This document shows positions 1,262-1,618 of a stretch of DNA of 14,358 bases, one piece after another. The first letter of the stretch is position 1, and every line of letters begins with the position of its first letter. The notes under the pieces are model-generated. The model did not search any database and was not told the origin of the DNA. It saw only the letters and a program-made list of their open reading frames with translations. Made by a program: the position numbers and the translations under genes. The DNA is from a virus, in the IMG/VR virus record IMGVR_UViG_3300035698_011115. One strand, 5' to 3'.

Positions 1262-1618
1262 ATGATACTAATCGTTGATGATAATGAAATGGTTTTAGAG
1301 TTTTTAAAAGACATGTTGAATTTAAAGTATGAGTGTGCATCATTTCTCAGTGCTAGATCAGCATTGGATGATTTAATACACAATCCTCGTATATATAATC
1401 TAATCATTACAGATTTCAATATGCCTTATATGAATGGTCTGGAATTTATAAAACAGGTCAGACTTCAAGCTAATGGAAGTATTCCTGTAATAATGGTTAC
1501 TGGTAATCCTCTAGATGTTCCAAAGAAAGATGTGGAGAAGTTAAGGATATCAAAGGTGATTGCAAAACCGTTTGAGTATGATTATTTGATGAGAGTCATA
1601 TATGATTTGGTGGGGTAG
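1262..1618 (+). CDS. standalone CheY-like response-regulator receiver (REC) domain protein
   Basis: The canonical REC residues are all present: acidic pair in ILIVDDNE, phospho-acceptor Asp in LIITDFNMPYMNG, Thr in VIMVTGN and Lys in IAKPF. There is no output domain. An AAGGAG Shine-Dalgarno is upstream. The last 10 nt overlap the tRNA-Met 5' end. Confidence 0.8.
   Translation: MILIVDDNEMVLEFLKDMLNLKYECASFLSARSALDDLIHNPRIYNLIITDFNMPYMNGLEFIKQVRLQANGSIPVIMVTGNPLDVPKKDVEKLRISKVIAKPFEYDYLMRVIYDLVG

Follow-up and report, generated by a model that had tools for sequence, protein, structure and literature searches.

Several bacterial single-domain regulators, among them CheY, Spo0F, DivK, CpdR and the CheY-type phosphate sinks, are proteins of about 120 amino acids that consist of a receiver and nothing else. 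Interference with the regulatory systems of the host is known from phages, and receivers of phages and giant viruses have already been catalogued, in PHROGs families 731, 5982, 20458, 37855 and 8810, all annotated 'unknown function', and in BFVD, which includes A0A6J5RMP2, a 'CheY-like receiver' of 143 amino acids from an uncultured Caudovirales, and A0A6C0R1B8, with 149 amino acids, from an Alteromonas phage. To our knowledge, phage-encoded classical receivers have not been studied functionally, and a literature search of incomplete coverage found no description of the function of a phage receiver-only protein. Here we describe a receiver-only gene, referred to as REC, in a 14,358-nucleotide stretch of DNA of probable phage origin (IMG/VR virus record IMGVR_UViG_3300035698_011115). 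This whole 14-kb stretch is called the window, and all conclusions about genome context are drawn from it. The end of REC, including its stop codon, lies within a tRNA gene. The locus was compared with that of P0002, a 118-amino-acid homologue that is 72% identical to REC and is encoded on an independent ENA contig, L001. The features at the center of the analysis are the following.

1157 to 1242, + strand: tRNA-Ser(GGA), identified by ARAGORN, with its CCA end 19 nt before the REC start codon
1250 to 1255, + strand: Shine-Dalgarno sequence AAGGAG, 6 nt 5' of the REC ATG, read from the sequence and found in the same place in L001
1262 to 1618, + strand: REC gene, ATG start, 118 amino acids, stop codon TAG at 1616 to 1618, predicted phospho-acceptor D51
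1609 to 1618, + strand: the 10 nt shared by REC and the tRNA, made up of the third base of the L116 codon, the V117 and G118 codons and the TAG
1609 to 1685, + strand: tRNA with anticodon CAU and encoded CCA, identified by ARAGORN and by Rfam RF00005 (1609 to 1682, 69.5 bits, gathering threshold 29)

The REC amino acid sequence matched the Pfam Response_reg family (PF00072) from end to end with an E value of 2.1e-19 and a score of 70.1 bits (cut-off 30.2), residues 2 to 113 being aligned with positions 1 to 110 of the 111 in the profile. The best sequence matches in the PDB were a hybrid two-component system protein, CheY4 of V. cholerae, CheY of H. pylori and receivers of RcsC. AlphaFold2, given both available sequences, produced a confident model (pLDDT 91.1, pTM 0.86) with strands and helices in (βα)5 order (E2-5, H9-19, E25-28, H31-40, E47-51, H59-69, E76-80, H88-93, E98-101 and H106-117). 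When this model was compared with solved receivers using Foldseek, TM scores were 0.81-0.89 at 1.6-2.3 Å, and the matches included CheY, PmrA and PorX (TM about 0.85 to these), ArlR and the BeF3-activated D1 domain of GacS. Explicit alignments placed D6/D7, D51, T80 and K102-P103 of REC in the columns of D12/D13, D57, T87 and K109-P110 of CheY, and of D10/D11, D54, T82 and K104-P105 of Spo0F. The β3-α3 loop reads TDFNMPYMNG in REC and SDWNMPNMDG in CheY. An in-frame TAA at 1247 to 1249 on the 5' side and the tRNA on the 3' side leave no space for an output domain, so REC is a standalone receiver. Judging from its sequence and its predicted fold, REC is a canonical receiver domain with the full set of phospho-acceptor residues. 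An earlier note on this DNA, written from the letters and the translated open reading frames, had described a standalone receiver with an intact phospho-acceptor set and had suggested a profile search and a structure model as checks. Both agreed with that description, and the acceptor aspartate and the other residues of the set, D6, D7, D51, T80 and K102, are all invariant in P0002.

The same note had called the protein CheY-like, which holds if the term is taken loosely to mean a single-domain receiver but does not extend to the chemotaxis protein. REC reached only 33.4 bits with the NCBIfam CheY model (NF007901 / PRK10610), for which the cut-off is 189, and only its residues 31 to 82 were aligned. 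Other NCBIfam equivalogs were also below threshold, DVU0259/DivK with 40 against 160 bits and CpdR with 35 against 180. In addition, REC has V99 in the column of CheY Tyr106, the aromatic switch partner of T87. As no equivalog threshold was reached and the aromatic residue is replaced, we consider REC a generic single-domain receiver rather than a chemotaxis CheY. No che genes were found among the window ORFs scanned.

The REC and P0002 genes differ at 21% of their nucleotides, mostly at third codon positions (identities of 78, 91 and 67% at the three codon positions), and the pairwise comparison gave a dN/dS of 0.26 at a dS of about 0.67. This ratio, the location of the differences, the invariant catalytic residues and the ribosome-binding site retained in L001 argue that REC is under purifying selection. 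By this pattern of substitution, REC is a real, selectively maintained gene; a pseudogene or a spurious ORF was ruled out by the dN/dS value and the conserved ribosome-binding site. Some huge phages read TAG as an amino acid, and we considered whether the REC frame continues through its TAG. Recoding was rejected for this region. Termination at TAG is common in the window (9 of 25 ORFs), the product of the vault-protein-like gene downstream of REC aligns with its homologues up to residue 861 of 862, just before its TAG, and the last helix of the REC model is complete at residue 117. ARAGORN detected no suppressor tRNA in the window.

The minimum-free-energy fold of tRNA(CAU) is a cloverleaf. 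It has a G1-U72 pair, U11:A24 and a U-G pair at 31-39, and the foot of its anticodon stem holds no more than two G-C pairs. Since the features of initiator tRNA-fMet (1:72 mismatch, three G-C pairs, A11:U24) are missing, it is of the elongator type, reading either as Met or as Ile2 with lysidine. The REC stop codon TAG coincides with U8-A9-G10 of this tRNA, which are among the most conserved tRNA nucleotides and near-universal. In L001 the REC homologue overlaps tRNA(CAU) by an identical 10 nt, and two stems of the tRNA have changed in a compensatory manner: the T stem from GCGGG/CCCGC in the window to GUGGG/CCCAC, and the anticodon stem from CCGGU/GCCGG to CCGGA/UCCGG. The retention of the overlap, the compensatory stem changes and the purifying selection on the protein indicate that REC and tRNA(CAU) are both functional and that their junction is conserved; to judge from these two loci, the overlap is not due to chance.

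The 10-nt overlap, stop codon included, had been pointed out in the earlier note and is confirmed by the ARAGORN and Rfam coordinates. Its special status is another matter, as a TAG formed by U8-A9-G10 recurs both in the window and in other large phages. Within the window, a tRNA-like element at 10536 to 10590 (+ strand; 29.6 bits with the Rfam tRNA model, just above the gathering threshold, and missed by ARAGORN) has an acceptor stem, a D-arm remnant, a T arm and CCA, the anticodon arm being replaced by only 2 nt. The phosphoesterase ORF 9955 to 10545 ends with a TAG at positions 8 to 10 of this element, that is, with the same 10-nt overlap, and a GAGGAGG ribosome-binding site and a GTG start lie 11-17 nt beyond its CCA. 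The final stop base of the ORF at 687 to 1157 is the first base of tRNA-Ser(GGA). A survey was carried out on about 1 Mb of related large-phage DNA with 181 tRNAs, counting open frames of at least 80 codons, which are not validated genes. An open frame ran into a tRNA in 14 cases, 10 nt being the commonest overlap length, and TAG occupied tRNA positions 8 to 10 in four of them, plus one with a 9-nt overlap, which corresponds to about 2-3% of the tRNAs. A 297-codon open frame ends in this way in tRNA-Lys(CTT) at 41936 to 42009 of L087, which is the stretch 161000 to 210999 of LR756501.1, from a 735-kb phage. Further long open frames with TAG at positions 8 to 10 were found in three other large-phage stretches, in a tRNA-Ile of L118 and a tRNA-Cys of both L130 and L152. 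The 735-kb phage has 38 tRNAs within the 50 kb of L087, where ARAGORN also reported a 91-nt tRNA with the four-base anticodon 'ttac' (43244 to 43334, - strand). Annotated phage relatives of tRNA-Met have no coding sequence beneath the tRNA, a finding of little weight given that annotation pipelines steer clear of overlaps of this kind, and no description of phage genes with the stop codon inside a tRNA was found in the literature, our coverage of which was incomplete. Taken at the level of sequence, the overlap looks like a recurrent by-product of tight packing in tRNA-rich phage regions, with U8-A9-G10 supplying the stop codon, rather than an adaptation peculiar to REC.

Close relatives of REC are rare. 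Among 5.8 billion proteins, a word-indexed search recovered nothing beyond the identical sequence and P0002. An exhaustive HMMER search of 1.84 billion cluster representatives found 74,027 receiver clusters matching REC at E<=1e-3, and beyond P0002 none was more than about 39% identical. Scans of viral contigs with the REC protein, the two-sequence alignment and the junction DNA yielded no relative; the sole junction-DNA match, in L086, was a chance match within an unrelated gene. A metagenome scan with REC recovered generic receivers only (28-45% identity), the LR756500/501 genomes contained no receiver that matched REC at E<=1e-3, and megablast, run with the entire window, matched none of 50,697 phage records.

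The 19-nt gap between tRNA-Ser(GGA) and the REC ATG (1243 to 1261) holds the AAGGAG sequence, and the same spacing of 18-19 nt is seen between tRNA-Ser(GCU) and the start at 6381 (gap 6363 to 6380) and between tRNA-Cys and the start at 7511 (gap 7492 to 7510). CCA is encoded in six of the seven tRNA or tRNA-like elements. The window resembles an operon punctuated by tRNAs. A scan of the + strand from 873 to 1931 with a sigma-70 consensus, which may not suit the host, detected no promoter-like or terminator-like site. The gap with its ribosome-binding site, the repeated spacing and this negative scan make co-transcription of tRNA-Ser, REC and tRNA(CAU), as the earlier note had supposed, the natural reading, well supported by the layout. 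A cut at the 5' end of tRNA(CAU), putatively at 1608/1609, would leave an upstream fragment that stops after the second base of codon 116 and therefore lacks a termination codon. Bacterial ribosomes stall on non-stop messages, and tmRNA or Arf factors are recruited.

The account of REC that we favor, with moderate confidence, is that of a single-domain regulator of a probable large or huge phage that would be phosphorylated on D51 and act as a phosphoryl sink or shuttle or as a phosphorylation-dependent binder, with tRNA-punctuated expression. Mg2+ would be bound through D6, D7 and D51. The phosphoryl donor could be a histidine kinase or an Hpt protein, most likely the host's because the window encodes no kinase, or a small molecule such as acetyl phosphate. 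As REC has no output domain, two options are left: like the CheY sinks and Spo0F, it might drain or relay phosphoryl groups, or, like DivK or CpdR, it might bind a target depending on phosphorylation. Either would re-tune a host signalling pathway during infection, and a phosphate-sink or signalling-hijack role, which was also the proposal of the earlier note, is plausible. Expression would proceed from a polycistron in the order tRNA-Ser, 19 nt with AAGGAG, REC, tRNA(CAU) and vault-protein-like gene. RNase P cutting at 1608/1609 would generate a stop-less REC mRNA, so that synthesis of full-length REC and maturation of the tRNA would compete for each transcript.

Several observations weigh against this account. 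HisKA, HATPase and Hpt domains were not found in the window ORFs scanned, and neither were capsid, portal or terminase genes. The donor lineage and the target pathway cannot be named because the closest cellular relatives are at most about 39% identical and have many architectures. With V99 in place of the aromatic switch residue, signal output by way of the customary α4-β5-α5 surface could be atypical. The promoter scan that speaks for co-transcription relied on a sigma-70 consensus that may not fit the host. Finally, removal of the REC stop codon by RNase P cleavage at the 5' end of tRNA(CAU) is plausible but was only inferred.

Two alternatives to this account involve the gene that follows tRNA(CAU) and its surroundings.

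1788 to 4376, + strand: vault-protein-like gene, 862 amino acids, similar to the major vault protein (Pfam MVP_shoulder 9.7e-30, Vault_3 1.9e-9)
4398 to 4778, + strand: 126-amino-acid coiled-coil protein with weak DivIVA-like matches, directly after the vault-protein-like gene
4778 to 6178, + strand: 466-amino-acid SPFH/Band_7 protein (phrog_11908, 9.8e-68)

The 862-amino-acid protein has no PHROG family. In the phage collection its relatives were limited to LR756500/501/503 (462 and 735 kb), at about 41% identity, and at least 125 IMG/VR stretches, on contigs of up to about 500 kb, encode relatives that are 36-42% identical; no close relative was found in one genome each of 185,579 prokaryotic species. 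Vault-like proteins were previously reported in two gut phages (preprint 10.1101/2023.11.10.566534), and the distribution seen here far exceeds those two. Vibrio phages, crAss-like phages and LR756500 encode relatives of the SPFH protein, and the vault-protein-like, coiled-coil and SPFH genes may form a membrane-scaffold module. L001 keeps the block REC-tRNA(CAU)-vault-protein-like gene, with the N-terminus of the latter 79% identical and in the same position, and differs in the upstream flank, which has an unrelated ORF and no tRNA-Ser(GGA). In LR756500/501 neither a tRNA nor a receiver adjoins the vault-protein-like gene, and among 80 distant viral loci a receiver-like ORF was found within ±5 kb of that gene only once, as a weak match. 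A general functional link between receivers and vault-protein-like genes was rejected, since it is contradicted by the other 79 loci and by LR756500/501.

REC could instead be the partner of a histidine kinase or phosphorelay encoded elsewhere in the phage genome, which probably measures several hundred kb, the two forming a sensing circuit that the phage runs by itself. BFVD does contain viral proteins in which kinase and receiver are combined, mostly from giant eukaryotic viruses and also from some phages, the long PHROG families 5982 and 20458 contain a receiver segment, and the window offers a view of 14 kb of the genome. The same 14 kb lacks HisKA, HATPase and Hpt domains among its scanned ORFs, LR756500/501 have no receiver matching REC, and receivers are absent around the vault-protein-like gene in all but one of the 80 viral loci. 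On balance we take such a circuit to be unlikely, while giving it more credit than any other rival to a regulator served by the host.

Somewhat less probable again is that REC works without phosphorylation as a binding module or adaptor, perhaps tied to the vault-protein-like and SPFH scaffold module. The conservation of the REC-tRNA(CAU)-vault-protein-like block next to a different upstream flank in L001 would fit this idea, as would the valine in the position of the aromatic switch. The five catalytic residues were nonetheless kept across a dS of about 0.67, which is unexpected if the chemistry is dispensable, and the vault-protein-like gene does without a receiver at nearly all distant loci, LR756500/501 included.

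It is also conceivable, in our opinion doubtful, that the tRNA-embedded stop codon is a regulatory device. RNase P would turn the REC message into a non-stop message, and REC would be made only from unprocessed precursors. Under this scheme, REC translated from cleaved message would be released or tagged by ribosome-rescue factors, a possible candidate being the GGQ protein encoded at 11671 to 12030. If true, the amount of a host-signalling decoy would be coupled to tRNA maturation and translation status during infection, and the same would hold for the phosphoesterase gene, whose end lies in the tRNA-like element at 10536 to 10590. The candidate (+ strand, 119 amino acids) is a stand-alone RF-1/GGQ domain (PF00472, 3.2e-19) with the motif GPGGQ. 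Its best NCBIfam match is PrfH, with 75.7 bits, below the cut-off of 166.65; the match to ArfB is weaker, and an ArfB-like basic tail is not present. This protein might hydrolyse peptidyl-tRNA on stalled ribosomes, an activity of possible relevance to stops lost by tRNA processing.

The regulator that we favor presupposes a phage, and a large-phage origin of the window is very probable. The six tRNAs and one tRNA-like element interleaved with short same-strand ORFs within 14 kb, the matches to PHROG families 11908, 7397, 990 and 547, a cREC domain (below) and the relatives of the vault-protein-like neighbor all point to it. Since the window lacks capsid, portal and terminase genes, this origin is judged from context; the earlier note's term 'phage-borne' is probably right, with no structural hallmark gene to back it. 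The opposite view, that the window belongs to a bacterial chromosome or other mobile element and that REC is an ordinary cellular orphan receiver, could appeal to those missing genes and to the overwhelmingly cellular distribution of receivers (the 74,027 representative clusters mentioned above). We regard it as quite improbable in the face of the tRNA arrangement, the matches to PHROG families 11908, 990 and 547, the cREC domain and a neighbor whose relatives are on viral contigs of up to about 500 kb and in phages of 462-735 kb and which has no close relative in the genomes of 185,579 species. GGAG-type ribosome-binding sites precede most window genes, which argues against a Bacteroidota host; Mahaphages, which are distant relatives, are predicted to infect Bacteroidota, contrary to this argument (PMC7162821).

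Other genes of the window were identified by their domains. Together, the first four listed here make up a nucleotide-metabolism and alarmone gene set.

45 to 359, + strand: C-terminal part of a dCMP/cytidine deaminase
8661 to 9074, + strand: 137 amino acids, SpoT/RelA-type HD hydrolase domain (phrog_990; TIGR00691, 4.5e-14)
9955 to 10545, + strand: phosphoesterase (phrog_547)
12910 to 14187, + strand: 425 amino acids, C-terminal NMNAT-like cytidylyltransferase domain
11111 to 11491, + strand: 126 amino acids, start codon uncertain, cREC_REC domain (PF20274, 6.1e-16)

A link to defence systems was dropped, as PADLOC gave no match for REC or its neighbors. The ORF at 11111 to 11491 is a second, distinct receiver derivative. 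cREC, the 'cyclic-phosphate processing receiver', occurs in jumbo phages (Iyer et al. 2021, PMC7824862), and in an alignment this ORF lacks the classical T and K. That REC itself is a cREC-class enzyme acting on cyclic nucleotide or ADP-ribose derivatives rather than a signalling receiver, as the occurrence of cREC in jumbo phages and the HD, phosphoesterase and NMNAT-like genes of the window might suggest, is effectively refuted: PF20274 did not match REC even at E<=1, the REC model fits classical viral receivers in a BFVD structure search (TM 0.8-0.87) far better than cREC entries (TM 0.56-0.64, E values of about 1e-2 to 1e-1, poor), REC has both the T and the K, and it shares no detectable similarity with the cREC ORF of its own window.

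REC is a clean candidate with which to ask whether phages siphon or redirect two-component phosphoryl flow, and its stop-in-tRNA layout offers a simple example, in a bacterial-type system, of how tRNA processing may compete with translation termination. There is also a consequence for annotation: where tRNAs are masked during gene calling, genes of this kind will be cut short or overlooked. Neither REC nor the overlap overturns current understanding, and REC will not surprise a specialist.

The closest parallel to the arrangement of genes is the tRNA punctuation of animal mitochondria, where, as in the window, tRNAs abut or overlap coding regions. Mitochondrial tRNA excision sets mRNA ends and can remove or truncate a stop codon. 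We know of no polyadenylation step that completes stop codons in bacteria or phages, so cleavage at the REC locus would, unlike in mitochondria, yield a non-stop mRNA. With respect to the protein, REC shares with the bacterial single-domain regulators the (βα)5 fold, the DD-D-T-K set, the K-P cis-proline motif and a β3-α3 loop nearly like that of CheY. It differs from CheY, Spo0F, DivK and CpdR in being at most about 30% identical to them, in having no che, spo or div partners nearby and in its probable phage carrier, and from the CheY switch in the valine that stands for an aromatic residue. The cREC proteins of jumbo phages are likewise derived from receivers and carried by large phages, but REC has kept T80 and K102 and has no PF20274 domain. 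The viral receivers already catalogued, some of which are receiver-only in size, share the classical receiver fold with REC; they are 18-30% identical to it, include no close relative and have not been reported to share a stop codon with a tRNA. REC is thus a divergent new addition to the phage receivers already catalogued.

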